This document shows positions 4,195 through 64,000 of a stretch of DNA of 64,000 nucleotides, one piece after another (positions within the stretch are counted from its first letter, which is position 1; the number at the start of each line of letters is the position of its first letter). Under the pieces are notes generated by a model. That model was not told the DNA's origin, did not search any database, and saw nothing but the letters and a program-made list of their open reading frames with translations. The stretch lies in contig CAYRYU010000010.1 in the NCBI GenBank assembly GCA_964428355.1, positions 39,334-103,333 of the forward strand. Reading direction: 5' to 3'. Origin of the DNA: an uncultured bacterium. Lineage in GTDB: Bacteria; Muiribacteriota; Ozemobacteria; Ozemobacterales; Ozemobacteraceae. The position numbers were made by a program, and so were the translations under genes.

Positions 4195-4247
4195 AGGGGT
4201 TGGACCTCCCCCGGCTCGGGAAAAGGCGGGCCGGATCCGGGTCCGGA

Positions 4248-4535
4248 TCACAGGCCTTCCACGATGAACGCTTTCGTCCTTGCAGCCCTGCTTCGGAGCT
4301 CCCGGGCCTTCGAATACTCGGGGGAGTTCCACCAGCGGCGTGCCTCCTCCACGCTTCCGAATTCGATCATCACGAGGCGGTTGGGGTTGATGTCCCCCTC
4401 CAGTATCTCGGCTCTTCCGCCTCGAACCAGGGGCTTTCCGCCGTATAGCCTAATGGTGGGCGCCCCTGCAGCCTTGTACTCTTCATAAACCTCACGATCA
4501 AGGACTTCGATATCCAGAATGACGTACGCGGACAT
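4248..4535 (-). CDS. DUF1330 domain protein
   Basis: The ORF track gives 4248..4769(-), but that upstream part overlaps the next gene. The true start MSAYVILDIEV at 4535 has GGGAGG 4 nt upstream. This gives 95 aa with the YEEYKAAGAP...GSVEEARRWWNSPEY motif of the DUF1330 family. Confidence 0.6.
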   Translation of the reverse strand: MSAYVILDIEVLDREVYEEYKAAGAPTIRLYGGKPLVRGGRAEILEGDINPNRLVMIEFGSVEEARRWWNSPEYSKARELRSRAARTKAFIVEGL

Positions 4536-11291: not shown

Positions 11292-11330
11292 GACCCGCCC
11301 TCGGCCGGTTGGCGTGCCTGATCCCCGGGG

Positions 11331-12077
11331 TCAGGTGGCGGAAACCTGCACCAGCATGAAACCGATGTTGTCTTTGCTCGTTTTCAGGGCTTCACGAAAC
11401 AGCAGCTCAGCCGTTTCCTCCGACTTGGGGAGTCCGAACCCCTCTTCCATCCGCTCCACCGGCACGGCACCCCAGAGCCCGTCGGAACATATAAGAAAAC
11501 GGTCTCCGGGCCGGGGTTGCAAGGGTCTGACGAAAACCTTCATCGGCTCGGAGTCTCCCCCGACCACGGCGGAGGTCACGATGTTCTGGGGAAGGTTGGC
11601 CGCAGGGATTCCTCCAGCCGAGGCTTCCTCCACCAGTGAATGGTCCTTCGTAAGCCTGTTGAGATACCCGCCCGTGACCTTGTAGACCCGGCAGTCACCC
11701 ACATTGAATACGAAGCTGTTCGGGCCGGCGAGGAAAAGCCCGGAAAGGGTGGTTCCAAGGCGGATATGTTTCGCTTCTGCGATCCGGTCGAGCCGGGCTT
11801 TCGCCTTCATGAGCAGGGGTTCGAACTGGGCAGGGGAGGTCAGGCTGCCGAACCCGTCCTTCAGGACCCCGAGGACCTCGCCGCTTGCCTCCTCCCCTGC
11901 CTCCTCCCCTCCCATCCCGTCGGCAACGACAAACCAGAGGGGGGAGCCTTCGAACTCCGTTCCTACAACCTTGTCCAGCGAGGTTTGGGAGATCACCTTG
12001 TCGAAGACCAGGAGAGAATCCTCGTTGTTCTTGCGGATCGTTCCGACATTCGTCAAAAAAAACGTCTTTACCTTCAC
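11331..12077 (-). CDS. PP2C-family Ser/Thr protein phosphatase
   Basis: GTG start at 12077 with AGGAGG 5 nt upstream. Motifs VADGMGGEEAGEEAS and ICSDGLWG are the metal-binding signatures of PPM/PP2C phosphatases (Stp/PrpC-like). Confidence 0.8.
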   Translation of the reverse strand: MKVKTFFLTNVGTIRKNNEDSLLVFDKVISQTSLDKVVGTEFEGSPLWFVVADGMGGEEAGEEASGEVLGVLKDGFGSLTSPAQFEPLLMKAKARLDRIAEAKHIRLGTTLSGLFLAGPNSFVFNVGDCRVYKVTGGYLNRLTKDHSLVEEASAGGIPAANLPQNIVTSAVVGGDSEPMKVFVRPLQPRPGDRFLICSDGLWGAVPVERMEEGFGLPKSEETAELLFREALKTSKDNIGFMLVQVSAT

Positions 12078-15186: not shown

Positions 15187-16806
15187 ATGAGCACTGCCAT
15201 AGTTTTCGTTCCCGCCGCCAGCTCTTTCTTCCCCGGTGCCGCGGCAGCGATGACCGGGGGGGTGGGCTTTCCCATCCTGCTTGGCGCTGCCCTCGGCCTG
15301 TTGATTTTGAGCCGCGTCATGGAAGAGGCAGGGAAGGCGGAGTGTTCTTGCGGCAGGCAGAACAGGGACTCCCTGAACGCCATGTTCCGCCAGGTCGAGG
15401 CTTCCGTTCAGAAGGTCGTTTCCGAGGTTCTCGAGCGGGCGGGCCGTACTCCGCTGAGCAATCGCAGCCGCGAAGCCCTCCAGCGCGAGATCGAGCTGAT
15501 CCGTGGGACAATGATTCCCAAGTGCCTTTCCGATCTTCGGGACGGTGTTCTCGGCGAACGCGAGGTCAGGGCGGTCGTTGATAAGCTCGAAGGGCTCGAC
15601 CTGCTCCTGGTCCAGCACCGCAGCGGGTTCACCCAGTCAAGGTCACGCGCCGATTTCCTGTCCGGGAAAATCGCAAGTCTCCTCCCCGATCTGACCTCGC
15701 GTTACTCGGGATCGGGGAAAGAGGATGCGCTGAAGGCCAGATTCGAGGAAATCCGGGGCATTCCGGAAGAGGATATCGAGGAAAGGATCGGTCTTCTCGA
15801 AGAGTTCCTTGGCCGGATCGAATGTATCTCCGACGGGAAGGTCCTGAGGAAGGTGGTGGACAGGCTTCTCGCCGGAACGCGGATTCCCGGTGTCGCCGCG
15901 ACCGGCCCGGGACCGGCCCCCATTCTCCCCCCTGACGAAGGCCTCGACCGGATGACACGGCTGAAGACCCTTCTCAACGACCTTGCCTTCTACCACCAGA
16001 AGCTTGGGGCCGAGTTCCCCGAACTGCTCGATGACCAGATGCAGAAGCTGGTTTCCGAGGCAAGCGGTTCCGACCATCTCCAGCGGGTTTCCGCGGTCCG
16101 GGACCAGGTGAAGCTGGTCTACCAGAAAGCCCATTCCCGGATGGTCCTTTCATCCTTCTTCAAGGACCGCCTGATCGCCCTTCGCGCAACCCTTTCCCCC
16201 GACAATCCCCTCACCGGGAGACTTGGAAGGGCGATCGAGGAAGCCGTGGTCGAGCGCGGGCTTTTCCAGGAGCTTTCCGAAGCGGTGGAAAAGCATCACC
16301 TCGGGGAGTTCGATGAGGAGATGAAGCTGGGCATCAGGGAAAAGGTTTCTTCCGCTCTCGATCGTCTTAATTACGTGGTGATCGATGATGACGAGCGGAA
16401 GGAGATTGTAGACCGCCTCTCCGAATCGAGGATGGCCCTTCTCAACACCAAATACGATGATTACAAACTGCTTCTTCGCATGGGGAAGGATGATGCCCTT
16501 TCGATCCGGTTGGTCAGGGTCGTTCAGAATCTGAAGGAACGGGAGAACATCTCCGAGTTCCAGAAACAGAAGGATACTGACCTCAAGAACGAGTGGTGTC
16601 ACAACGTCGATCTGCTTCGCGAGCACCTCGAGGCAATGGGAATCATCGTCAACCAGAAACTCCGCCTCGAGGACGATGTCCAGTATCTTACCATCGAGCA
16701 GCTTGAACAGCAGAAGGTCGATACCTCCCGGTTGAGAAAAACCACCCCCGATGCGGTCAAGAAGGGCCAGGCGCGACAAAGGAAGCGCGGGGAAAAGAGC
16801 GGATGA
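15187..16806 (+). CDS. Uncharacterised protein with N-terminal hydrophobic anchor and long alpha-helical region
   Basis: ATG 15187 with GGGAGG 6 nt upstream; the ORF track lists GTG 15181. N-terminus MSTAIVFVPAASSFFPGAAAAMTGGVGFPILLGAALGLLILS is a TM/signal segment. The remaining roughly 480 aa are Glu/Leu/Arg/Lys-rich with no motif I recognise. Its stop overlaps the start of the kinase at 16803 (ATGA). Confidence 0.55.
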   Translation: MSTAIVFVPAASSFFPGAAAAMTGGVGFPILLGAALGLLILSRVMEEAGKAECSCGRQNRDSLNAMFRQVEASVQKVVSEVLERAGRTPLSNRSREALQREIELIRGTMIPKCLSDLRDGVLGEREVRAVVDKLEGLDLLLVQHRSGFTQSRSRADFLSGKIASLLPDLTSRYSGSGKEDALKARFEEIRGIPEEDIEERIGLLEEFLGRIECISDGKVLRKVVDRLLAGTRIPGVAATGPGPAPILPPDEGLDRMTRLKTLLNDLAFYHQKLGAEFPELLDDQMQKLVSEASGSDHLQRVSAVRDQVKLVYQKAHSRMVLSSFFKDRLIALRATLSPDNPLTGRLGRAIEEAVVERGLFQELSEAVEKHHLGEFDEEMKLGIREKVSSALDRLNYVVIDDDERKEIVDRLSESRMALLNTKYDDYKLLLRMGKDDALSIRLVRVVQNLKERENISEFQKQKDTDLKNEWCHNVDLLREHLEAMGIIVNQKLRLEDDVQYLTIEQLEQQKVDTSRLRKTTPDAVKKGQARQRKRGEKSG

Positions 16807-19394
16807 CCCCAGTGGATGACAACGAAAAGACCCGGATACTCGTTGATCCTGCCGCGCCGAGGTCAGGCGACGAGGACCTTCCCGATGAAAGCCACCCCAC
16901 CGGGCCGGGAACCGGGGCCACGGGTGGTTCCGGCACCGGTGGGACCTTCCGGGGCTGGAGTATTGTCCGGAATTTTCCCGCCCAGGGTGGGGAAGCCGAT
17001 ATTTCCCTCATCGAGAAGGCGGGGGAGCAGCGGATCCTCAAGCTCTACAGGTACGGTATCACACCGAAAAAGGAAGTGTTCGAGGCTGTAGCGTCGCTCG
17101 GGGTCAAGCACCCCGCAGGCTTCGTCAGGCTTTTCGAGTTCGGTCTCGACCCCGGAACCAACTGCTTTTTCGAGATCGACGAGTTCGTTTCCGGGGGAAC
17201 GCTCGCGGACCATCTGGTCTCCGGGCGCCTCTCCGAGGACGAGATCGAAGCCCTCTGCCGGCAACTGGTTCCCTCCCTCGAAGCGCTTCACGAGCATGGA
17301 ATTCTGCACCTCGACCTGAAACCCGGAAACCTGCTCGTCCGGAACAGGGACCCCCTCGAAGTCGTCCTCTCGGATTTCGGCCTTTCCTCGATCTATGACG
17401 CGGCTCTTTCCCAGAAATTCACCCAGACCAAGGGGACCAGCTTGTACCAATCTCCGGAAAGTGTTACTGGAGCGGTGAACCCGAAATCGGACTGGTGGTC
17501 GTTCGGGATCATGGTCATGGAACTTCTGATGGGCAGGAACCCCTTCGATGGCTTGCAGGCACAGGTGATCTTGTACCAGCTGACCACCCAGGGGGTGGAG
17601 ATTCCCCAAACGGTCTCCGGCCGATGGCGGAACCTCCTCATGGGCTTGCTGACCCGGAATCCAGAAAAACGCTGGGGCGGGGAACAGGTCCGCGCCTGGT
17701 TGGGCGGAGCGACGGTCGAAACCGGGTATCAGGAGGAGATGTCGCAAGCCAGGGAAAAGCCGTCCGCGTCAACCTTTTCAGCTTCCTCGCAGTACCGGCG
17801 TCTGGGAGTGCCCTTTACGTTCCGCGGTGTCGCCTTTAACGCCCTCGAAGACCTGGCTGGGGCGATGATCGCCTCGAGGGATGCATGGGAGGACGGGAAA
17901 GCCGATGTGGCGCGGGGAAAGCTCGCCGAGTGGCTCGAGCAGAACGGCGATAGCGATCGCGCGCGGCAGGTCCGGGGGTTGATGGATGAATCCCCAGATC
18001 CGGATCAGCTTCTGTTCAGGTTTGCGATCTATTTTCGTGCCGATCTTCCTTTCGTCTGGAGGGGCGTCCCCCTGGACGATGAGCAGTTCCGGGGGCTTCT
18101 GAAAAGTTACTCCCGGGACCTCGATCCTGGAGACAAATTCCTCGTGGAAGGGGTTTTTTCCGGGGAGCTCTTCCAGGAGTATGTGAAACTGACCGGAGGC
18201 ACCCTCGGAAAGGTCGACCCGTTTCTCAGGATCGCCAAGGGCATGAAAGGGACCGACCTCGAGAAGGAGCCCGTTTCGGCGCGGGTGGAGATTCTCCGGC
18301 GGGCGATAGACGGGGACTTCGCCGGAAGCAGGGCACTTTCCACACTGAAGGTTGCCCTCGGCGGTGCAGGGCATGCAGCCGAAGAAATCTTCCTGATGAT
18401 CCAGAAGAAGGGGTTCAACACATTCGCCCAGAAAGCTGCCTTGTGGCAGCCAGGGGACCAGGACCTCTGGAACATGGTCATGAAGGTCTTCCTGAAGAGC
18501 GATCATCTCAGGAACCTGAACTTCGCGACCTTCTTCCAACACTCCGAATCGGTTCTCGCCGCTGCCAGGAAAGACCCCACGATCAGGGATTTCATCGTCC
18601 GCGTTTTTGGAAGGGCCAACATCGATCTTGGCCTGGTAAAGCAGATCCAGGATTTTTCCGAAATCCAGCCCTGGGTCGAACCTTTGATCCGTTCGGTCTA
18701 CAATCTTCCATCCGGCGAGAAACTCAAGATCTGTCTTGGCAACCTCATGGTGGCCGCCCCCCTCAACGCCAGGTGGGACGAGATATCGGGCCGATACATC
18801 ATCCCGCCTTTCCTGAACGACCTCCGGAACGGCAAGGTCATCTCGCAGGGAAACCTGAAACTTGCCCGACAGGTGATCGACCAACCTGATCTCCTTCCCC
18901 TCAAGTCGCCCGATTTTTCCAACTGGGCCGAGTTCGTGAGTCTCATTCAAACCCCAGCCGAGATCAACCCCGAGTCGATCGAGTATCTCGATTTCCTTCG
19001 CCGGGAAAGGGACCGCCTTTCCATGGGCCAGCGCAGGACATGCTTCGAAAGCATCGTTCGATGGGTGATCTACCTCCTTGCTGGTTTTTTCCTGCTCTCC
19101 CTGACCTCTCCCCCCCGTCGATACAGTGGCGATGCACGCGAGAGAAGTTGCTACGCCAATATGCGGACGATTCTCGGGGCGGTCGAGATGTACAACATGG
19201 ATCATTCCCAGATGATGAGCGGTGTCGAGGATCCCGATACGTTGAACACGCTCCTGAGGTCGAACTACCTTCGTAATCAGATCACGAGGCCTGTTCCCGG
19301 GTGCCGATACTCCAATGACGGCGATCTGACCGGCTTGGGGGCGGTAACCTGCGAGATTCACGGGACCGTGGATGACCGTAGCACCAACCGCTGA
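16803..19394 (+). CDS. Hanks-type Ser/Thr protein kinase (non-RD) paralog with shared C-terminal module, TM helix and extracytoplasmic tail
   Basis: Motifs: AQGGEADISLI...QRILKLYRYG, HLDLKPGNLLV, DFGLSS, SPESV. The C-terminal module is homologous to the 8712 and 12855 proteins: GFNTFAQKAALWQPGDQD, IIPPFLNDLRNGKV. A TM segment (WVIYLLAGFFLLSLTSPP) follows. The 90-aa tail beginning RERSCYANMRTILGAVEMYNMDH resembles the post-helix segment of GspG/DUF1559-type pseudopilins. Confidence 0.8.
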   Translation: MTPVDDNEKTRILVDPAAPRSGDEDLPDESHPTGPGTGATGGSGTGGTFRGWSIVRNFPAQGGEADISLIEKAGEQRILKLYRYGITPKKEVFEAVASLGVKHPAGFVRLFEFGLDPGTNCFFEIDEFVSGGTLADHLVSGRLSEDEIEALCRQLVPSLEALHEHGILHLDLKPGNLLVRNRDPLEVVLSDFGLSSIYDAALSQKFTQTKGTSLYQSPESVTGAVNPKSDWWSFGIMVMELLMGRNPFDGLQAQVILYQLTTQGVEIPQTVSGRWRNLLMGLLTRNPEKRWGGEQVRAWLGGATVETGYQEEMSQAREKPSASTFSASSQYRRLGVPFTFRGVAFNALEDLAGAMIASRDAWEDGKADVARGKLAEWLEQNGDSDRARQVRGLMDESPDPDQLLFRFAIYFRADLPFVWRGVPLDDEQFRGLLKSYSRDLDPGDKFLVEGVFSGELFQEYVKLTGGTLGKVDPFLRIAKGMKGTDLEKEPVSARVEILRRAIDGDFAGSRALSTLKVALGGAGHAAEEIFLMIQKKGFNTFAQKAALWQPGDQDLWNMVMKVFLKSDHLRNLNFATFFQHSESVLAAARKDPTIRDFIVRVFGRANIDLGLVKQIQDFSEIQPWVEPLIRSVYNLPSGEKLKICLGNLMVAAPLNARWDEISGRYIIPPFLNDLRNGKVISQGNLKLARQVIDQPDLLPLKSPDFSNWAEFVSLIQTPAEINPESIEYLDFLRRERDRLSMGQRRTCFESIVRWVIYLLAGFFLLSLTSPPRRYSGDARERSCYANMRTILGAVEMYNMDHSQMMSGVEDPDTLNTLLRSNYLRNQITRPVPGCRYSNDGDLTGLGAVTCEIHGTVDDRSTNR

Positions 19395-27256: not shown

Positions 27257-28634
27257 ACCGGTGTTCCCGGCCCCCTGGGCCTTTGACCGAGGGAAAAAAT
27301 CGGCCATTGCCGCATTGATCGCCGGGTTCCTTTTCCTGGTTTCCGCATTTCCATCATCTTCCGGGTTCACTTTGTCCGACGAGGATTCCCGGATGTTGAG
27401 CCTCATCCAGAAAAGGACCCTGTCCTACTTCTGGGATTTCGGACACCCCGTTTCCGGTCTCTCCCCCGAACGGAACACCACTCCGGATACCGTTACCTCG
27501 GGCGGCTCCGGATTCGGCCTCATGGCCTTGCTCGTCGGGGTCCGGCGCGGGTGGCTGACCCGGGAAGCCGTTCTCGAGCGCTGCCTGAAGATCGCGGATT
27601 TTTTGGCGAAAGCCGAGCGGTTTCATGGCGCCTGGCCGCACTGGCTCGACGGAAGGACCGGGGCCGCGATTCCGTTCAGCAAGTATGACGATGGGGGCGA
27701 CATCGTCGAGACCTCCTACCTCATCCAGGGGCTGTTGACGGTCAGGGCTTTCTTCAATTCTGATGACCCCGCCGAGGGAAGGCTCAGGGAGAGGATCGAC
27801 AGACTCTGGCGCGAAGTCGAATGGGACTGGTACACTCGCGGGGAAAACGTCATTTATTGGCACTGGTCCCCCAACTACGGATGGAAAATGAACCTTCCCA
27901 TTCGGGGATACAACGAATGTCTGATAACCTACGTTCTTGCCGCCTCCTCCCCGACTCACCCGATCGGGTCCGCGGTTTACCATGGCGGCTGGGCAACGGG
28001 GCCGGTGTTTCTGAACGGAAAGACCTATTTCGGGAAGGTGCGATTGCCGCTCGGCCCCGGCTTCGGGGGTCCGCTTTTCTTCACGCACTATTCGTTTCTC
28101 GGGCTCGACCCGAGGGGGCTCAAGGACAGATACGCGAACTACTGGCAGCAGAACACGGGCCACGCGATGATCAACTACCTGTATTGCGCCCGCAACCCTG
28201 TTCCGGACCTGGGGTATTCATCCGATTGCTGGGGGCTCACCTCCTGCGACAATCCCTGGGGTTACGATGCCCACAGTCCTTCCAACGATCTTGGTGTGAT
28301 CGCCCCCACAGCGGCTCTTTCCTCGATCGTCTACACGCCGACGCAGTCTTTGAGAGCCGCGAGATACTTCCTGAATGTCCTGGGGCAAGACCTCTTCGGG
28401 CCGTTCGGTTTTTACGACGCATTCTGTCCTCGTGAAGGATGGGTCGCGACCTCCACCCTTGCCATCGACCAGGGTCCGATCATCATCATGGTCGAGAATT
28501 TCAGATCCGGCATGCTTTGGAGACTATTCATGGGGGTTCCGGAGGTCCGCTCCGGGCTCCGGAGGCTTGGGTTCACCTTTCCCGGGGGCTCCCGGCACGG
28601 TAATTCCACTGGCAACCAAGGAGAAGGACAATGA
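27237..28634 (+). CDS. Glucoamylase-family / GH144-like glycoside hydrolase (putative endo-beta-1,2-glucanase)
   Basis: N-terminal TM/signal segment, then LSYFWDFGHPVSGLSPERNTTPDTVTSGGSGFGLMALLVG, HGAWPHWLDGRTG and TSYLIQGLLTVRAFF. This is the (alpha/alpha)6 'glucoamylase family protein' pattern seen in GH144. It overlaps the downstream GH3 gene by 4 bp. Confidence 0.55.
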   Translation: MYSILPEPVFPAPWAFDRGKKSAIAALIAGFLFLVSAFPSSSGFTLSDEDSRMLSLIQKRTLSYFWDFGHPVSGLSPERNTTPDTVTSGGSGFGLMALLVGVRRGWLTREAVLERCLKIADFLAKAERFHGAWPHWLDGRTGAAIPFSKYDDGGDIVETSYLIQGLLTVRAFFNSDDPAEGRLRERIDRLWREVEWDWYTRGENVIYWHWSPNYGWKMNLPIRGYNECLITYVLAASSPTHPIGSAVYHGGWATGPVFLNGKTYFGKVRLPLGPGFGGPLFFTHYSFLGLDPRGLKDRYANYWQQNTGHAMINYLYCARNPVPDLGYSSDCWGLTSCDNPWGYDAHSPSNDLGVIAPTAALSSIVYTPTQSLRAARYFLNVLGQDLFGPFGFYDAFCPREGWVATSTLAIDQGPIIIMVENFRSGMLWRLFMGVPEVRSGLRRLGFTFPGGSRHGNSTGNQGEGQ

Positions 28635-30856
28635 TTCGACGAGGTTTTTTCCAGACCGTTCTGTGCGTGGCGGTTGTCATGGGTGCATTTTCCCCCTTCG
28701 ACGTTGCCGGTTCCGATACCAAAGCTTTCGTCGAATCGCTCCTCAAAAAGATGACCATCGAGGAGAAGATCGGCCAGATGACACTATTCACCAGCACCTG
28801 GGACCAGACGGGCCCGATGGTGAACGCCGATTACCTCGAGCACGTGAAAACGGGAAGATGTGGGGCGATTTTCAACGCCTTTACCGCTTCCTACACACAG
28901 TATCTCCAGAACATTGCGATGGGCCAGACAAGGCTCAAGATCCCGCTCCTTTTCGGTTACGACGTGATTCACGGCCATCGGACCATCTTCCCGATCCCTC
29001 TCGCGGAATCCTGTTCCTGGGATCTCGAAGCGATCGAGCGGTCTGCCCGCGTGGCCGCCATCGAAGCCTCCGCCGAGGGAATCCACTGGACGTTCGCCCC
29101 CATGGTCGATATCGCCCGGGACCCGCGCTGGGGGCGGGTGTCCGAGGGAGCGGGGGAAGATGTGCATCTCGGTTGCCTCATCGCGGCAGCGCGGGTTCGC
29201 GGTTTTCAGGGGAAAGACCTTTCCGCGCCCGATTCCGTGATCGCCTGCGCGAAGCATTTCGCGGCATACGGTGCGGCCCAGGCAGGGCGTGATTACCATA
29301 CCGTCGATGTTTCCAGGCGAACCATCGAGGAGACCTATCTTCCTCCATTCCAGGCTTGTGTCCGCGAGGGGGTCCGGACCTTCATGACCGCGTTCAACGA
29401 GATTTCCGGAGTCCCTTGCACCGCCAACCGGTGGTTGATCGAAAGCGTCCTGAGGGAGCGTTGGGAGTTCCCCGGATTCGTTGTAACGGACTACACATCG
29501 ATGAATGAGATGGTTCCACACGGGATTGCCGCCGACGAGTACGAAGCCGGGAAGCTTTCGGCCCTCGCAGGTGTCGATATGGACATGCAGGGCGCGGTCT
29601 ACCTGAACCACCTCGCCGCGATGGTCCGGAAGGGGGATATCCCCATCGCCAGTATCGATGCCGCCGTCCGGCGGATCCTCACGGTCAAGGCCGAGCTGGG
29701 ACTGTTCGAAAACCCCTACAAGGGCTGCGATCAGGCTCGTGAAGCCAGGGTCGTCTTTTGCCCCGAGCATCTGGAGGAAAGCCGGAGGATGGCCCGCAAG
29801 TCCTTCGTTCTGCTCAAGAACGAGGGAGGAGTGCTCCCCTTCCGGAAGGATCTTCGCTCGATCGCCGTGATCGGCCCCCTGGCGGAAGCCACTACCGATC
29901 TTCTGGGGAACTGGCATGGCGCGGGGAACGGCAACCAGGTCACGCCCCTCCTCAAGGCCGTCCGCGATTCCGTGGGACCAAAGACCGAGGTTCTGTTCGC
30001 CAAGGGAGCGGAAGTGAGCGGGACCGATCGCTCGGGTTTCCGGGCCGCCCTGGAAATCGCCCGTGAAGCCGACGTGGTTCTGCTTGCCCTGGGTGAAACC
30101 GAGGGGATGAGCGGCGAAGCCTCCTCCCGTTCGGAAATCGACCTTCCCGGTGTCCAGAATGAGCTCGCGGAGCTGGTTGCCCGTTGCGGAAAACCGACCG
30201 CGGCGGTCCTGTTCAACGGGAGACCCCTTGCCATCCGGAGACTAGATGCGGCGGTTCCGGCAATCCTCGAAGCCTGGTTTCCCGGGTCGATGGGCGGGAA
30301 GGCAGTTTGCGACGTGATTTTCGGGGAATTCGAGCCCTCGGGAAAGCTGACCATGACCTTCCCCCGGTCCGTGGGGCAGATTCCCCTGCACTACGACATG
30401 AAGAACACGGGGCGCCCGGAGTCGGAGGGGAAATACACCAGCAAATACCTCGACATCGCCAATTCCCCCTTGTACCCGTTCGGATACGGCCTGACCTACA
30501 CGACCTTCAAATACTCTGACCTCAGGCTGAATTCGAAGACGATGAAGGATCTGGGGGTGATCGTCGCCACCGTCTGCGTCACGAACGTCGGAAGCCGCGA
30601 CGGGGACGAGGTCGTCCAGCTATACATCCGGGACCTGGTCGGGAGCGTCACCCGGCCGGTCAAGCAGCTCAAGGGTTTCAGGAGGATCCGGGTCCCGAGA
30701 GGGGAAACCCGCACGGTGACATTCGTGATCTCTCCTTCCGACCTGGCCTTCCTTCGTGCAGACATGACCTGGGGAACCGAGCCCGGCACCTTCGGGGTCA
30801 TGGTCGGCGGCGATTCGGAGCATGTCCTGAAGGATTCCTTCCAACTCCTCGATTGA
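28631..30856 (+). CDS. bglX: GH3 family beta-glucosidase (BglX-like), secreted
   Basis: Signal peptide. GH3 signatures: KIGQMTLF, GYDVIHGHRTIFPIPLAES, KHFAAYGAAQAGRDY, and the catalytic-nucleophile region GFVVTDYTSM. C-terminal fibronectin-like domain present. 741 aa. Confidence 0.85.
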   Translation: MIRRGFFQTVLCVAVVMGAFSPFDVAGSDTKAFVESLLKKMTIEEKIGQMTLFTSTWDQTGPMVNADYLEHVKTGRCGAIFNAFTASYTQYLQNIAMGQTRLKIPLLFGYDVIHGHRTIFPIPLAESCSWDLEAIERSARVAAIEASAEGIHWTFAPMVDIARDPRWGRVSEGAGEDVHLGCLIAAARVRGFQGKDLSAPDSVIACAKHFAAYGAAQAGRDYHTVDVSRRTIEETYLPPFQACVREGVRTFMTAFNEISGVPCTANRWLIESVLRERWEFPGFVVTDYTSMNEMVPHGIAADEYEAGKLSALAGVDMDMQGAVYLNHLAAMVRKGDIPIASIDAAVRRILTVKAELGLFENPYKGCDQAREARVVFCPEHLEESRRMARKSFVLLKNEGGVLPFRKDLRSIAVIGPLAEATTDLLGNWHGAGNGNQVTPLLKAVRDSVGPKTEVLFAKGAEVSGTDRSGFRAALEIAREADVVLLALGETEGMSGEASSRSEIDLPGVQNELAELVARCGKPTAAVLFNGRPLAIRRLDAAVPAILEAWFPGSMGGKAVCDVIFGEFEPSGKLTMTFPRSVGQIPLHYDMKNTGRPESEGKYTSKYLDIANSPLYPFGYGLTYTTFKYSDLRLNSKTMKDLGVIVATVCVTNVGSRDGDEVVQLYIRDLVGSVTRPVKQLKGFRRIRVPRGETRTVTFVISPSDLAFLRADMTWGTEPGTFGVMVGGDSEHVLKDSFQLLD

Positions 30857-30858
30857 AG

Positions 30859-30922
30859 CCCCGTTCCTGGAACGCCCCGTTCCGTGAACGCCCCGTTCCG
30901 GGAACGCCCCGTTCAGGGGACC
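30859..30922. repeat. Tandem array of 16-bp units, each an internal palindrome CGTTCCnGGAACG (3 full + 1 degenerate copy)
   Basis: Read directly from sequence: ccccgttcctggaacg / ccccgttccgtgaacg / ccccgttccgggaacg / ccccgttcaggggacc. GTTCC and GGAAC are reverse complements. The array fills the 56-bp gap between the convergent GH3 and GGDEF genes and runs into the last codons of the GGDEF gene. Confidence 0.6.
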
Positions 30923-31896
30923 GCTTTCATTCCCCCGTTCGGGTGGCATTTTGCCTTGAAAAGCCCGGTCTGTGCGCGCCAGATGAATTCCGGGAGCTTC
31001 TCCCCTGCATGGGTGGACGTCAGGCCGATCGAGACCGAGGTTTTCACCTCCTTGAGGGTGAAGTTCCTGGAAGAGATGTTCTTCCGGAAACGGTTGATGA
31101 CGATCTTCGCGCCTTCGAGAGGGGTGTGCGGCATGCAGACGATGAACTCGTCGACCCCGAAACACCCGATCAGATCGACACCCCGCAGGATGGTCTTCAG
31201 TTCGTCGGCAACCTCGCACCGGAGCTTTCGGGCGGTGGCCAGCCCGTGGAGGTTCGCGACCTGCTTGAAATTGTCGATATCGTAGATCGAAAGGGCCAGA
31301 GGGAACTTGTACCGTTCAGCCTTCCGGAACTCCTCCTGGAGTTTCATCTGGAAGAAATCATTGCACAGCAGCCCGGTTTCCTCGTCGTAACGCCGGAGCT
31401 GGTTCACTATCCCCAGAAGGCGCTCCTTGTTCATTGCAGCTCCTATGATGTTCGCGCAGGCATGGAAGAAGCACTCCTGAAACCGCGGCAGGGGATAATA
31501 CTCATTGAAGTGGATCAGCAGGACTCCGACTGCCTGACTGTCAACCGATACCCTAACCGCTACGGCCATCCCGTAAGGTTGTCCCAGGAGAAGTTCCTCG
31601 TATTCACCTGCTTCTCTGGGGGTTACAACCACCATTTCCTTCGCGTAGAAGACCTTCCCGAAGACCCCCGTTCCCACGGGGCGACGGAATGTGCGGGAAG
31701 TCTGTCCCGAAAGATTCCAGCCATTCTTGATTTCCAGGTAATCCGTTTCGGGGTTCTTCACCAGGAGTGCCGATGAAAGTGCTTCCGGGAGAACCTTCAT
31801 CCCCTGCATGACCCGGAAAACCGTTCTCGTGGAATCGCACTGGGCCACCACGGAACAAAGATGTTTCGCGATCGCGTCAAAAAGCGCATTTTGCAT
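30913..31896 (-). CDS. GAF-like + GGDEF domain protein with degenerate active-site motif (GVDEF)
   Basis: C-terminal half: FFQMKLQEEFRKAERYKFPLALSIYDIDNFKQVANLHGLATARKLRCEVADELKTIL...DLIGCFGVDEFIVCMP. This is the GGDEF fold, but the second Gly of GG[DE]EF is replaced (FGVDEF). The N-terminal roughly 150 aa are a GAF-like sensory region. Confidence 0.7.
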   Translation of the reverse strand: MQNALFDAIAKHLCSVVAQCDSTRTVFRVMQGMKVLPEALSSALLVKNPETDYLEIKNGWNLSGQTSRTFRRPVGTGVFGKVFYAKEMVVVTPREAGEYEELLLGQPYGMAVAVRVSVDSQAVGVLLIHFNEYYPLPRFQECFFHACANIIGAAMNKERLLGIVNQLRRYDEETGLLCNDFFQMKLQEEFRKAERYKFPLALSIYDIDNFKQVANLHGLATARKLRCEVADELKTILRGVDLIGCFGVDEFIVCMPHTPLEGAKIVINRFRKNISSRNFTLKEVKTSVSIGLTSTHAGEKLPEFIWRAQTGLFKAKCHPNGGMKAVP

Positions 31897-53477: not shown

Positions 53478-54506
53478 ATGATCAAGAAGACTCTTTCGTT
53501 CGTGCTTGTCGTTTTCTCTGTCTGTTCCATCGGCATTGCTTCGGAAAAGGGAGCCGGGAATGCCTCCGTCGTTCTGGTGAACCGGCTTCAGTATGACGCC
53601 GGCCTCGCCTCTTCCGCCGTCTACCCCACGGACGTCTGCTCGATCCCCTTTGGAACGGACGATGCCAATGTCGGTGGCGATTCCCAGGATTCGAAACGCC
53701 AGGCAGGCGGTGCGCCCACGGCATATGTTCCTCTTGCTGACGGCTCGTTCTGGGTCCTCGACACGATCAACCAGAAGGTGAAGCACTTCGGTGCGGATGG
53801 AAAGCTCATCTCCTGCTTCCCCTTCCCGGAAAGCGGGCCGAAGAAATTCATCTTCATGAAGGACCTTGCGGTGATACCATCCGGCGGGATGTACTTGTAC
53901 AATTCCACCCAGGGAATTGTGGTTCGAGTGGATGACAAGGGTGTTTCGCAGGTCCGGATCGAAGGGCTGCCCGATTCCAGGGAGATCGGGGTAGACAGCA
54001 AGGGCAACCTGTTGGTGTCGAACCCGCGAATGAGGAGCCTGATGCGCTTCAGCCCAGCGGGGGAACTGTTGGAAAAGTTCTCGGGAAAGGATCTCCTCAC
54101 GCCGATGGTGGATTCCGCCGACCAACCCCTGGGAATGAAGTTCAACGAGCAGGAAGCGGAGCTGTTCCGGGCTGAGAAAGCTTCTCCGACAGTGATCGTC
54201 CCGATCGCGAAGTTTCCCCTCCGGGCTCCGAAGGAGAGGAAAGCCCATTTCGTTGCTGCCAACGTGCTCGGTTCGGATGCCAAGAAGAACGTTTACATCG
54301 AGCTGATCGCCTGCGACAAGAGCGGTGTGATCCATCAGCATGGCGTTCTTCGCCTTTCCCAGGATGGAAAAACCCTCGCCCAGGCCGATCTGATTGCCTT
54401 TCCATTCCTCTATCCAAGGAAGAAGATGGTAACCCCTGATGGCAGGATTTTCGGCTTCCGATCCGACAACAAATCCTGGATCCCGATTTCGTATTCGCTT
54501 CCCTGA
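53478..54506 (+). CDS. Secreted hypothetical protein (possible beta-propeller)
   Basis: Signal peptide MIKKTLSFVLVVFSVCSIGIAS. Repeated G-x-hydrophobic strand-like segments. No confident family assignment. Confidence 0.45.
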   Translation: MIKKTLSFVLVVFSVCSIGIASEKGAGNASVVLVNRLQYDAGLASSAVYPTDVCSIPFGTDDANVGGDSQDSKRQAGGAPTAYVPLADGSFWVLDTINQKVKHFGADGKLISCFPFPESGPKKFIFMKDLAVIPSGGMYLYNSTQGIVVRVDDKGVSQVRIEGLPDSREIGVDSKGNLLVSNPRMRSLMRFSPAGELLEKFSGKDLLTPMVDSADQPLGMKFNEQEAELFRAEKASPTVIVPIAKFPLRAPKERKAHFVAANVLGSDAKKNVYIELIACDKSGVIHQHGVLRLSQDGKTLAQADLIAFPFLYPRKKMVTPDGRIFGFRSDNKSWIPISYSLP

Positions 54507-54671
54507 GGCTCAACTCCCGGACTCATGGATTTCGAAAATCACGGACTGGCCCGTTATACCGATCTCCCGGTGGATGGACACCTACGTCCTGACGTTCAAT
54601 TGAATTCCCACCGGGCAGTGGTACTCGATGAAATTCGCCATCAAAAGGCTTGTGAATACCTGGCATTCATT

Positions 54672-54704
54672 GGGAAAAGGCCACCGGCCTCTCGGTCGGT
54701 GGCC
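54672..54704 (-). terminator. Possible minus-strand rho-independent terminator
   Basis: ggccaccg(54679-54686) / cggtggcc(54697-54704), an 8-bp GC stem with a 10-nt loop. On the minus strand it is followed by TTTTCCC. It lies about 150 nt from the RNA ligase stop, so the assignment is weak. Confidence 0.25.
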
Positions 54705-54853
54705 CCAGTATCTGCCATCTCCGAAAACCCGATTTAGGATGCATATGTTTTGACGGGTACGAAACAAGTGCGGTTTGGAAAGGAAAGGTGGGAGGATACA
54801 AAGGGTTCACCAGGATTGTCTGAGGGAGAGACTACCCGGGCAAGAAAAAGGGT

Positions 54854-61834: not shown

Positions 61835-61841
61835 GGGCGGG

Positions 61842-64000
61842 ATGTCGTTGATTCACGAATGGCTGAAACCGAGGCTGGAAGCCGCTTCTGGCCAGGACCG
61901 GATCCTGATCCGGGACCCGTTCCGGCTCCTTTCCGATTCCGACGGATTCCTGCACCAATTCGCAAAAACCCACGGGTTTACCGTGCTGGTGGCCTCCACG
62001 AATCTGGTGTTCCGTGACCTGTATGAAAAAGCCCGACAGGACGAAGGCGGGAGTCGTCTCCTGATCGTGGACCGTGCGACGCCGCGACAGCGGTCCCAGG
62101 GCGGACGCGTGGCCGCGGTCGCGCCGTTCTATCCCGACCTTCTGGCCGAAACATCCCCCGAAGCCCGGATCGAAATCGGATTGCGCGGGTTTCTCCAGGA
62201 GTGGACTCACGATCCGCTTTGGCCCGCCAGGGTCGAGGATCCCCGTTTTTCCCGGCTGATCACAGCGCACTTGAAGGGTGTCCTGGTTGCCCACAGGAAC
62301 CTGAGGATGGCCTACCCTGATCGCTTCACAGATCGCGATCTCGAAGTCATTATCGCATATGCAGCCATGGGAGTACCCGAATCCGCATTCAGGCATCAGG
62401 ACGCCGAAGAATATTGGAAAATCGCTCTTCTTGGCCCCCGGGCGTTCGAGGAGCTCGAGAGCATTGCTCCTACCATCACCCGGCCGATCAGGGAGAAACT
62501 TCGCCAGGCTGCTCCTCCGTTCTGCCACTTCGCCACCCATGATCCGGAACTCGTGCTGAGGGCTTTCTATCTGGGAGTCATTCTCTCCCAACATGTCGAG
62601 AACTGGTCCCCCCTTCTGGCCAACATCGACCCGGACCTTTCCCCGCTTGCCCATCTTTCATCGCAAGCTCTGATGGACGCGGCGGACAAACTCCAAAATC
62701 TTGATCCGAAACGTGTCCGAATTGAAATCGCCCAAGTCGAGAACTCCCTGACCGCTGCCCACCTCGAATTCCTCGTGTTTTCCCAATGGAATTGGCATGA
62801 CCCGAAACGATGGGCTGATGCCTTCAGGCGCGAACGCTCCTCGGGATTGTTGCGAAGTCTCATCCTGTTACTGGCACTGGATGACTCTCTTGGAACCAAT
62901 CCCGCCGCGGGGTCTCATAAAGAGTTACACCAACTGTTGACCGACCCGGTTGGGGCGGGGTTACCCGCAGGGGAACTCCCGGACGCGGCGGAAGGGGCGA
63001 TCCGGGAGGCCTACCTGCTGGCCCTTTCCGTTCAGGCCCTCCGTCGTGATCTGGTATTGGGAAACAAAAATCTGGGAATGCTCAAGCCCGCCCAGCTGTC
63101 CCTGGCGCCCTTTCTGAAACTGTGGAAGGAGCAGAGGGTCAGCGGTCTCGAATATCGTGTTTCCCTTCTCGAGCGCAAGGTGCATCATGGAAGGATGCTT
63201 CCCAGAGCCGAGGCCGACCTTCCTCCCCGTTGCCGGGCCGCCCTGGAGTCGATCCGGTCCCGCCTGGGGGCATTGGAAACCGACGTTGGAAGCCAGTTGC
63301 AAAGCCTCGATGCCCGGTTCCAGGACCTGGTCGGGCGAGACTACCCGGGTTGGGTGTCCGGAAAAGGGGAGATCACCACCACCAGCTCTTTTCTGGAGCG
63401 GATCCTGAAGCCCCATTGGGATCCCCAGAGGGAAAAAGCCGTCCTGTTCATTTTCGACGGGATGCGGATCGACATCTGGCAGGAACTGGTCTGGCCCGCG
63501 TTGGAGGATCGCCTGGAGGCTCTCGTCGATCAGGTCGGGTCATCGCTCCTCCCTTCCGAGACCCACATTTCACGGAAAGCCATCAGCGCGGGAACCACTC
63601 CTGATGGGTTCGATTCCCATGCCGCCGAGAGCACGCTCCTGGAGTCCGCGCTGGCCCAGAAGTTCCAGTGGAGGGGGGCTGTCGATACCGTCGCCCCCGA
63701 CTCAGCCGGAACCGGAGAGACCGTTCGGTATCGGGCAGGCAACCTCGATGTCTACATTCTCGATCTGTGCGACAAGGAACTCCACAAGATCGGGGTGAAG
63801 ACCCTGGCCGACAGAAGGCAGGTGCCTGAGCGCCCGTTGGTGTTCATCTATCAGCAGTTGATCAAGAACATCATCGACCACGAAGTGATGACGATCGTCC
63901 GGGCGCTCACCCCGGGGACGAAGGTCTTCGTCACGGCAGACCACGGCTTCAGCCGAGTCGGTCGGGAGAAGTTGTGGCTGGATGCCGAATGGCTGAATGC
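61842..64000 (+). CDS. pglZ: PglZ-domain protein (alkaline-phosphatase superfamily, BREX BrxZ/PglZ), 3' end beyond window
   Basis: Not in the ORF track because no stop lies inside the window. I read the frame from ATG 61842 (MSLIHEWLKPRLEA) through 64000 without a stop. PglZ motifs occur in frame: VLFIFDGMRIDIWQEL (about 63441), LPSETHISRKAISAGTTP, and VFVTADHGFSRVG near the end. Confidence 0.75.
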   Translation, partial: MSLIHEWLKPRLEAASGQDRILIRDPFRLLSDSDGFLHQFAKTHGFTVLVASTNLVFRDLYEKARQDEGGSRLLIVDRATPRQRSQGGRVAAVAPFYPDLLAETSPEARIEIGLRGFLQEWTHDPLWPARVEDPRFSRLITAHLKGVLVAHRNLRMAYPDRFTDRDLEVIIAYAAMGVPESAFRHQDAEEYWKIALLGPRAFEELESIAPTITRPIREKLRQAAPPFCHFATHDPELVLRAFYLGVILSQHVENWSPLLANIDPDLSPLAHLSSQALMDAADKLQNLDPKRVRIEIAQVENSLTAAHLEFLVFSQWNWHDPKRWADAFRRERSSGLLRSLILLLALDDSLGTNPAAGSHKELHQLLTDPVGAGLPAGELPDAAEGAIREAYLLALSVQALRRDLVLGNKNLGMLKPAQLSLAPFLKLWKEQRVSGLEYRVSLLERKVHHGRMLPRAEADLPPRCRAALESIRSRLGALETDVGSQLQSLDARFQDLVGRDYPGWVSGKGEITTTSSFLERILKPHWDPQREKAVLFIFDGMRIDIWQELVWPALEDRLEALVDQVGSSLLPSETHISRKAISAGTTPDGFDSHAAESTLLESALAQKFQWRGAVDTVAPDSAGTGETVRYRAGNLDVYILDLCDKELHKIGVKTLADRRQVPERPLVFIYQQLIKNIIDHEVMTIVRALTPGTKVFVTADHGFSRVGREKLWLDAEWLN

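Follow-up and report, generated by a model that had tools for sequence, protein, structure and literature searches.

Classical intrinsic bidirectional terminators are flanked by A- and U-tracts, VNTR loci expand and contract by slipped-strand mispairing, and REPs occur as hundreds of dispersed copies of 20-40 nt that are associated with RAYT transposases. Arrays of met-boxes, sopC repeats or iterons lie in promoters, origins or partition loci beside the gene for their binding protein, and their repeats follow one another directly or in helical phase. At bidirectional terminators of E. coli, the nascent stem-loop positions RNA polymerase collisions (10.1101/2022.10.23.513370). REP hairpins have been shown in E. 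coli to act as terminator and stabiliser, and their presence between convergent genes is correlated with higher expression of both (10.64898/2026.03.23.713779). Termination by U-less hairpins is disputed; in mycobacteria, the most thoroughly studied example of a lineage with few canonical terminators, RNA polymerase did not terminate at such hairpins in vitro even when NusA and NusG were supplied (PMC3993855).

The locus described here is an array of 16-bp palindromes between two convergent genes in a 64-kb window (the whole stretch of DNA that was analysed). Like the U-less (‘I-shaped’) gene-end stem-loops and bidirectional terminators, the array is GC-rich, lies a few nucleotides past a stop codon and folds on both strands; unlike U-less stem-loops, it builds its stem from tandem palindromic 16-mers rather than from a unique inverted repeat, and unlike a classical intrinsic bidirectional terminator it lacks flanking A- and U-tracts. 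Its copies are arranged as in an intergenic VNTR or minisatellite, in which a unit of 10-100 bp is repeated head to tail at high identity (here a period of 16 bp, with 91% matches and no indels), but the unit itself is palindromic, in contrast to that of a typical VNTR. It shares with the REP and BIME elements of Enterobacteria and Pseudomonas the clustering of GC-rich extragenic palindromes between convergent genes (10.64898/2026.03.23.713779), whereas it differs from them in occupying a single locus in 64 kb, in its 16-nt unit and in its strictly direct tandem copies. Short, regularly spaced, dyad-symmetric repeats are also found in the MetJ met-boxes and sopC. Unlike these and iterons, however, the array has a 16-bp period and no such genes nearby, and it sits between two stop codons rather than in a promoter, origin or partition locus. 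Nor does it have the layout of a CRISPR, whose repeats of 24-48 bp alternate with unique spacers of similar length; the 16-bp units here are contiguous.

The preliminary description reported 16-bp-period repeats at 30859-30922, and the sequence reads exactly so. TRF agrees, returning a period-16 array at 30858-30918 with 3.8 copies, 91% matches, 0% indels and a score of 101; by this measure it is by far the strongest tandem repeat of the window, where the second-best score is 50. At a lag of 16 the array matches itself at 41 of 45 bases, as compared with a best value of 28/45 for the rest of the window over lags of 7-40, and a maximum of 30/45 in 40 dinucleotide-preserving shuffles. The array is real and far beyond chance. 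An assembly artefact is unlikely because, at ~61 bp, the array is well below typical short-read length, and it is not the artefact of one assembler because the Logan assembly SRR12133404 of the same locus is identical over 221 bases. Copy number at the locus is known from one strain, for which both assemblies are identical.

The palindrome CGTTCC-N-GGAACG, 13 bp long, is perfect in unit 1 (30859-30874, CCCCGTTCCTGGAACG; palindrome at 30862-30874) and in unit 3 (30891-30906, CCCCGTTCCGGGAACG; palindrome at 30894-30906). Unit 2 (30875-30890, CCCCGTTCCGTGAACG) carries it with one mismatch, G to T at 30885, and unit 4 (30907-30922, CCCCGTTCAGGGGACC) is degenerate, so that the palindrome with a variable centre base that had been ascribed to every copy is borne out, with this gradation among the units. 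Mapped by reading the sequence, all three departures of unit 4 from the consensus unit fall in stop codon or coding bases of the downstream GGDEF gene. The array can also be read in an alternative register, GGAACG-CCC-CGTTCC. A fifth, partial match to the 5' half of the unit (CCCCGTTCGGG) lies at 30933-30943, 26 nt beyond unit 4; on the - strand this stretch of the GGDEF gene codes for Pro-Asn-Gly-Gly. The resemblance may be due to chance, or the repeat may have grown from this sequence as its seed.

Pfam confirmed that the flanking genes are a convergent GH3 and GGDEF pair, as had been proposed. The GH3 beta-glucosidase gene (28631-30856, + strand, 741 aa; Glyco_hydro_3 2.5e-63, Glyco_hydro_3_C 1.2e-51, Fn3-like 8.8e-25) is the last of a co-directional cluster and ends with a TGA at 30854-30856; its product has the same length as a 77%-identical homologue (P0007). 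On the other side, the gene for a GGDEF-domain protein (30913-31896, - strand, 327 aa; GGDEF 6.6e-21) ends at 30913-30915 (tca). The stop-to-stop gap of 56 bp (30857-30912) is wholly filled by the array, and unit 4, as previously noted of the last copy, extends over the GGDEF stop codon and the last two codons (Val-Pro). This stop codon is native, because the C-terminus of the GGDEF protein aligns end to end with those of four homologues of 327-329 aa, and the coding sequence thus sets the boundary of the array.

The neighbouring genes encode, besides GH3 and GGDEF, a glycoamylase, DUF3419 and MMPL proteins, an AcrB/HlyD efflux pair and Hsp20. Pfam revealed no rep, par or regulator genes among the neighbours of the array, and no DNA-binding domain in any of the 15 nearby proteins that were scanned; four of these matched no Pfam family at all. 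Both flanks are gene 3' ends, and the nearest promoter or gene start is more than ~1 kb from the array.

The palindromic nature of the unit makes adjacent copies mutually complementary. Folding of both strands, as the preliminary description had proposed, gave one composite hairpin of 18 bp at 30862-30906, present on both strands as the MFE fold and as an inverted repeat. Its outer stem of 13 bp pairs 30862-30874 (unit 1) with 30894-30906 (unit 3) and holds one G-U pair on the + strand, which is an A-C mismatch on the - strand. An internal loop of 3x3 nt (CCC/CCC) separates it from an inner stem of 5 bp (30878-30882 with 30886-30890), which closes a 3-nt loop at 30883-30885; the tip is thus formed by unit 2. 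The MFE of the 56-nt gap is -27.1 kcal/mol on the + strand and -25.8 kcal/mol on the - strand, and in a context of 106 nt the respective z-scores against shuffles were -3.2 and -3.1. The hairpin is centred in the gap, starting 5 nt past the GH3 stop and ending 6 nt short of the GGDEF stop. The earlier judgement that the hairpins are too short for terminators therefore holds for single units but not for the array, whose units pair into an 18-bp stem.

What the hairpin lacks is a U-tract. The sequence following the stem is CCCCGTTCAGG on the + strand and GGGGCTTCAAT on the - strand, and of the two features of an intrinsic terminator the GC-rich hairpin is present while the 7-9-nt U-rich tract is not. 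A consensus terminator scan did not call the array site; canonical terminators are in any case not enriched in the window (20 found, 17.3 expected).

The three full units differ at 3 positions, yet are still mutually complementary. The centre base of unit 1, a T, lies opposite the centre G of unit 3 and gives the tolerated G-U pair of the + strand, and the G-to-T change of unit 2 falls within the apical triloop. In the predicted fold, the differences between units thus sit where the composite hairpin tolerates them. The fold itself is not independent evidence of selection, because tandem palindromes must fold into a long hairpin.

We compared the array with the other convergent junctions of the window, a greedy ORF map giving seven with the array junction included, and the MFE was computed for every 50-nt window of the + strand across the 64 kb. 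Such windows inside genes had a mean MFE of -12.3 kcal/mol (sd 4.2), and only 0.17% of them reached -25 or lower. A strong U-less hairpin lies close to a stop at four of the seven convergent junctions, and at three of these it is non-repetitive. Junction 2046-2197 has two hairpins, of -28.0 and -27.7 kcal/mol (windows 2043-2092 and 2125-2174; p 0.003), junction 4195-4248 has one of -27.2 (window 4198-4247; p 0.02), and at junction 11292-11330 a hairpin of -25.8 (window 11293-11342; p 0.005) fills the 39-bp gap. The corresponding values at the array are -27.1 and p 0.003, all p-values being empirical and relative to length-matched stretches of gene interior. Three of the strong junction hairpins start within 5 nt of a stop, and the one of -27.7 lies ~24 nt from the stop that it faces. 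No T-run was found at any of the strong junction hairpins, and inspection by eye revealed no obvious motif common to the array and the others. The array thus has each property of this class of U-less junction: -25 kcal/mol or lower in 50 nt, proximity to a stop, a convergent gap and no T-run.

At the three remaining convergent junctions no hairpin was significantly strong: two gave -20.4 and -16.3 (weak), and the third, 61835-62566, reached -26.4 at 62078 in a long gap of 732 bp that has no ORF of at least 90 aa (p 0.09). In the nearest relatives (L045 and L046), three convergent junctions with room for a hairpin carry a comparable one, of -23.3, -24.1 and -27.7, and a fourth (L045 11940-12112) reaches only -18.2. 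Strong U-less hairpins look like the usual gene-end signal of this lineage. Because other junctions carry equivalent U-less hairpins, the array would be the version of the genome-typical 3'-end hairpin at this locus; it is one instance of a general architecture of the lineage, and its sole peculiarity is that its stem is made from tandem copies.

The same scan turned up other folded regions. A stretch of 512 bp without an ORF of at least 90 aa (54342-54853) has a hairpin of -26.8 at 54661; neither this stretch nor 61835-62566 had an Rfam or tRNA match. The most stable 50-nt fold of the window, of -35.6 kcal/mol, lies at 16896-16945, ~90 nt inside ORF 16803-19394 and just past a 4-nt overlap between genes; a wrongly called gene start is one possible explanation, an internal attenuator another.

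Homologues of the flanking genes were used to look for the array in relatives. Homologues of the GGDEF protein are few, at most 48% identical and located in unrelated contexts. Judging from the named GH3 homologues, with 75%, 69% and 66% identity, the organism is probably Riflebacteria or Candidatus Ozemobacteraceae-like. The two closest GH3 loci (77% and 75%) keep the glycoamylase-GH3 pair, which is followed after 28-44 bp by a co-directional gene for an MGDG-synthase-like glycosyltransferase; at the 69% locus an unrelated convergent gene follows. Synteny with L045 and L046 (26153-30856 of the window) is limited to the glycoamylase-GH3 pair, at 75-77% identity: DUF3419 and MMPL genes lie upstream in the window and GGDEF and AcrB genes downstream, as compared with inositol phosphatase and PFK genes upstream and the MGDG-synthase-like gene downstream in L045 and L046. 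No trace of the unit was found at the 77%, 75% and 69% GH3 loci, from which the GH3|GGDEF junction is absent. The comparison of orthologous gaps suggested in the preliminary description consequently found no orthologous gap to compare, and the array appears, from these loci, to be specific to the lineage of the window.

Searches for the unit elsewhere were similarly negative. At up to one mismatch the window contains no other copy, save two near matches inside genes, and at up to two mismatches there are 10 matches outside the array where 6.9 are expected, which is within chance. Outside collections were scanned with patterns of 1.25 to 1.3 units, that for genome contigs being GAACGCCCCGTTCNNNGAACG. 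In 185,579 species genomes, a search that did not recover the window's own genome, there were 39 single matches and none in an array; these are scattered over unrelated taxa, consistent with chance, and several are apparently in coding sequence. Metagenome contigs yielded 59 single matches and one array, downstream of gatB in Bradyrhizobium, while viral contigs yielded six single matches and no array, and the region had no blastn match in plasmids and phages. The search for further copies that had been recommended thus gave no second copy in 64 kb and no array outside Bradyrhizobium. Rfam returned nothing credible for the region at E up to 1 or for the whole window at gathering scores; sX13 (E 0.89) fell well short of its gathering score. 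The window contains no tRNA or tmRNA. Papers retrieved for the palindrome dealt only with eukaryotic STAT sites, primers and CCNGG restriction sites. Two further assignments were discarded: an ECF-sigma promoter (GGAAC ... CGTT) would require a spacing of 16-17 nt, the spacing here being 4 or 20 nt, with nothing downstream to transcribe, and the core of an integron attC, GTTRRRY, is not matched by GTTCCNG.

Among the single matches, fourteen contigs from soil metagenomes (L054, L055, L059-L062, L068, L075, L082, L086, L090, L093, L103 and L105) agree almost perfectly over ~90 nt surrounding the pattern match. In nearly every case this stretch is at most ~100 nt from a contig end, a placement expected of the terminus of a repeated mobile element at which assemblies break.

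The Bradyrhizobium locus provides an analogue in which copy number can be followed. Contigs L065, L076 and L101, whose GatB proteins are 89-96% identical to proteins named Bradyrhizobium, have, ~1 kb downstream of gatB, the unit CCC(T/C)CGTTCCCGGAAC(G) repeated in tandem at a period of 15-16. There are three full units in L076 (3160-3215) and L101 (395-450) and two in L065 (2733-2790), whereas six related contigs (L116:6436-6475, and also L117-L121; GatB 96% identical to that of L076) have one full unit and a partial one, ~1.5 copies, at the same site. The flanks align well. The near-identity of this unit to that of the window is a consequence of the search pattern, but the variation in copy number is not. 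Because related contigs have ~1.5, 2 and 3 copies, the analogue shows that arrays of this palindromic 16-mer expand and contract as slipped-strand mispairing predicts, and the array of the window may by analogy behave likewise. Upstream of the Bradyrhizobium array there is a conserved non-coding block (L076:2950-3160 and L065:2500-2735), with ~60 nt nearly identical between otherwise diverged contigs and with indel lengths that are not multiples of three; it had no Rfam match and may be an undescribed small RNA or leader.

We consider it somewhat probable that the array is a palindromic repeat generated by slippage that forms a bidirectional 3'-end hairpin of the GH3 and GGDEF transcripts. This reading builds on the array and its composite fold, their fit to the gap, the hairpins at other junctions and the absence of the unit from the other sequences searched. 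The origin of the array is most likely slippage: a 16-bp palindromic unit would have been duplicated in tandem by replication slippage, in a lineage-specific, VNTR-like manner, and the array would occupy the position at which a GC-rich stem-loop usually separates convergent genes in this genome. In either transcript, unit 1 would then pair with unit 3, and unit 2 would cap them, to give the single 18-bp hairpin. An effect on transcription or mRNA stability we infer by analogy with the E. coli elements: the hairpin may pause or stop RNA polymerases converging from the GH3 and GGDEF genes, and may shield the 3' ends of both mRNAs from exonucleases. The missing U-tract makes intrinsic termination in the strict sense doubtful (PMC3993855). 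For the same reason termination, if any, would need polymerase collision, Rho or another factor. The ‘bidirectional attenuator’ of the preliminary description is the best supported of its readings, albeit as a putative one, given the 18-bp hairpin centred in the gap and the comparable hairpins at other junctions.

The main rival is that the array is a neutral product of slippage, in which a palindrome near the GGDEF stop was duplicated, the gap tolerates the copies and the hairpin arose as a side effect. Within 64 kb no other locus has the unit, its array is absent from the genome, metagenome (Bradyrhizobium apart), viral, plasmid and phage collections searched, and the GH3|GGDEF junction is not conserved in the nearest relatives, all as this account would have it; moreover, the Bradyrhizobium analogue varies in copy number, and the fold is automatic once a palindrome repeats. 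Nevertheless, the array fills the gap exactly and its stem matches the non-repetitive junction hairpins in strength and position, a match that suggests that a hairpin is wanted at the gap, and 3 positions differ among the three full units without loss of their mutual complementarity. We therefore regard neutrality as unlikely, though as an account to be taken seriously. The preliminary description also raised the possibility of an array for a dimeric DNA-binding protein, that is, a platform of three to four operator-like sites that might serve as a roadblock or insulator or as a nucleoid or segregation site. The 13-bp palindromes are indeed regularly spaced, two of them are perfect, and their centre base varies between units, which is typical of non-contacted spacers; a very similar unit is arrayed in Bradyrhizobium. 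However, with gene 3' ends on both sides there is no promoter to regulate, and because the 16-bp period is ~1.5 helical turns, successive sites would be out of phase and face opposite sides of the helix. Unit 2 has a mutation in a half-site, the palindrome is not enriched elsewhere in the window (10 against 6.9 expected), the neighbouring proteins that could be classified have no Pfam DNA-binding domain, and papers retrieved for the motif concerned only eukaryotic STAT sites and primers. The Bradyrhizobium unit is the same because the search pattern selected for it, and copy number at that locus is variable. A binding platform is accordingly not supported and we think it improbable. A wider form of the idea, that CGTTCC-N-GGAACG units with a CCC(C) spacer are sites of a widespread uncharacterised dimeric protein, such as a roadblock, insulator or nucleoid-associated factor, is a remote prospect; if true, the Riflebacteria-like and Bradyrhizobium arrays would stem from a trans-acting system common to both, not from slippage of a hairpin in each separately.

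The suggestion of a REP or iteron-like element fares no better, and membership of a dispersed, mobile family of palindromes akin to REP, BIME or MITE elements is very improbable. The array is a GC-rich extragenic palindrome between convergent genes, a favoured location of REPs (10.64898/2026.03.23.713779), and the part of the genome inspected is only ~64 kb. Against this, there is no other copy in these 64 kb at up to one mismatch, the two near matches inside genes apart, and the other junction hairpins have no obvious motif in common with it. Outside Bradyrhizobium, the genome, metagenome and viral scans gave single matches and no array, and plasmids and phages gave no match. The copies are 16 bp and head to tail, unlike REPs, which span 20-40 nt and frequently switch orientation from copy to copy. 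Reading of the sequence beyond the units revealed no flanking inverted repeat or target-site duplication. According to the preliminary description, the binding-array and REP readings would be undermined if the unit occurred nowhere else and the region were poorly conserved, or variable as slippage would make it, among relatives; the unit was indeed found nowhere else in the sequences searched and the region is not conserved in relatives, but variation of the slippage type was seen only in the Bradyrhizobium analogue. At the 3' end of the GGDEF transcript the - strand might form a G-quadruplex, or the + strand an i-motif, but this is scarcely credible. The - strand does read GGGG-N12-GGGG-N12-GGGG-N12-GGGG, with three self-complementary 12-nt loops, but loops of canonical quadruplexes are shorter, and G4-aware folding in ViennaRNA still returned the hairpin (-32.0 kcal/mol for a 75-nt segment). 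A quadruplex of 4 layers with 36 nt of loops would have ~-11.7 kcal/mol, as compared with -25.8 for the 56-nt hairpin.

In conclusion, what we favour here, a 3'-end hairpin made by slippage, combines an ordinary intergenic tandem repeat with a U-less gene-end hairpin, both of known kinds, and beyond annotation and the points that follow the array matters little. If its copy number is variable, it could be used as a strain marker, and it would possibly be a tunable insulator between the beta-glucosidase operon and the diguanylate cyclase gene. The array illustrates one way in which a gene-end stem-loop can be made, from a tandem short palindrome rather than from a unique inverted repeat. It adds to the evidence that strong U-less hairpins mark the ends of convergent genes in a Riflebacteria/Ozemobacteraceae-like lineage, which is useful for the prediction of operons and 3' ends in a phylum of which the collections searched contain few members.
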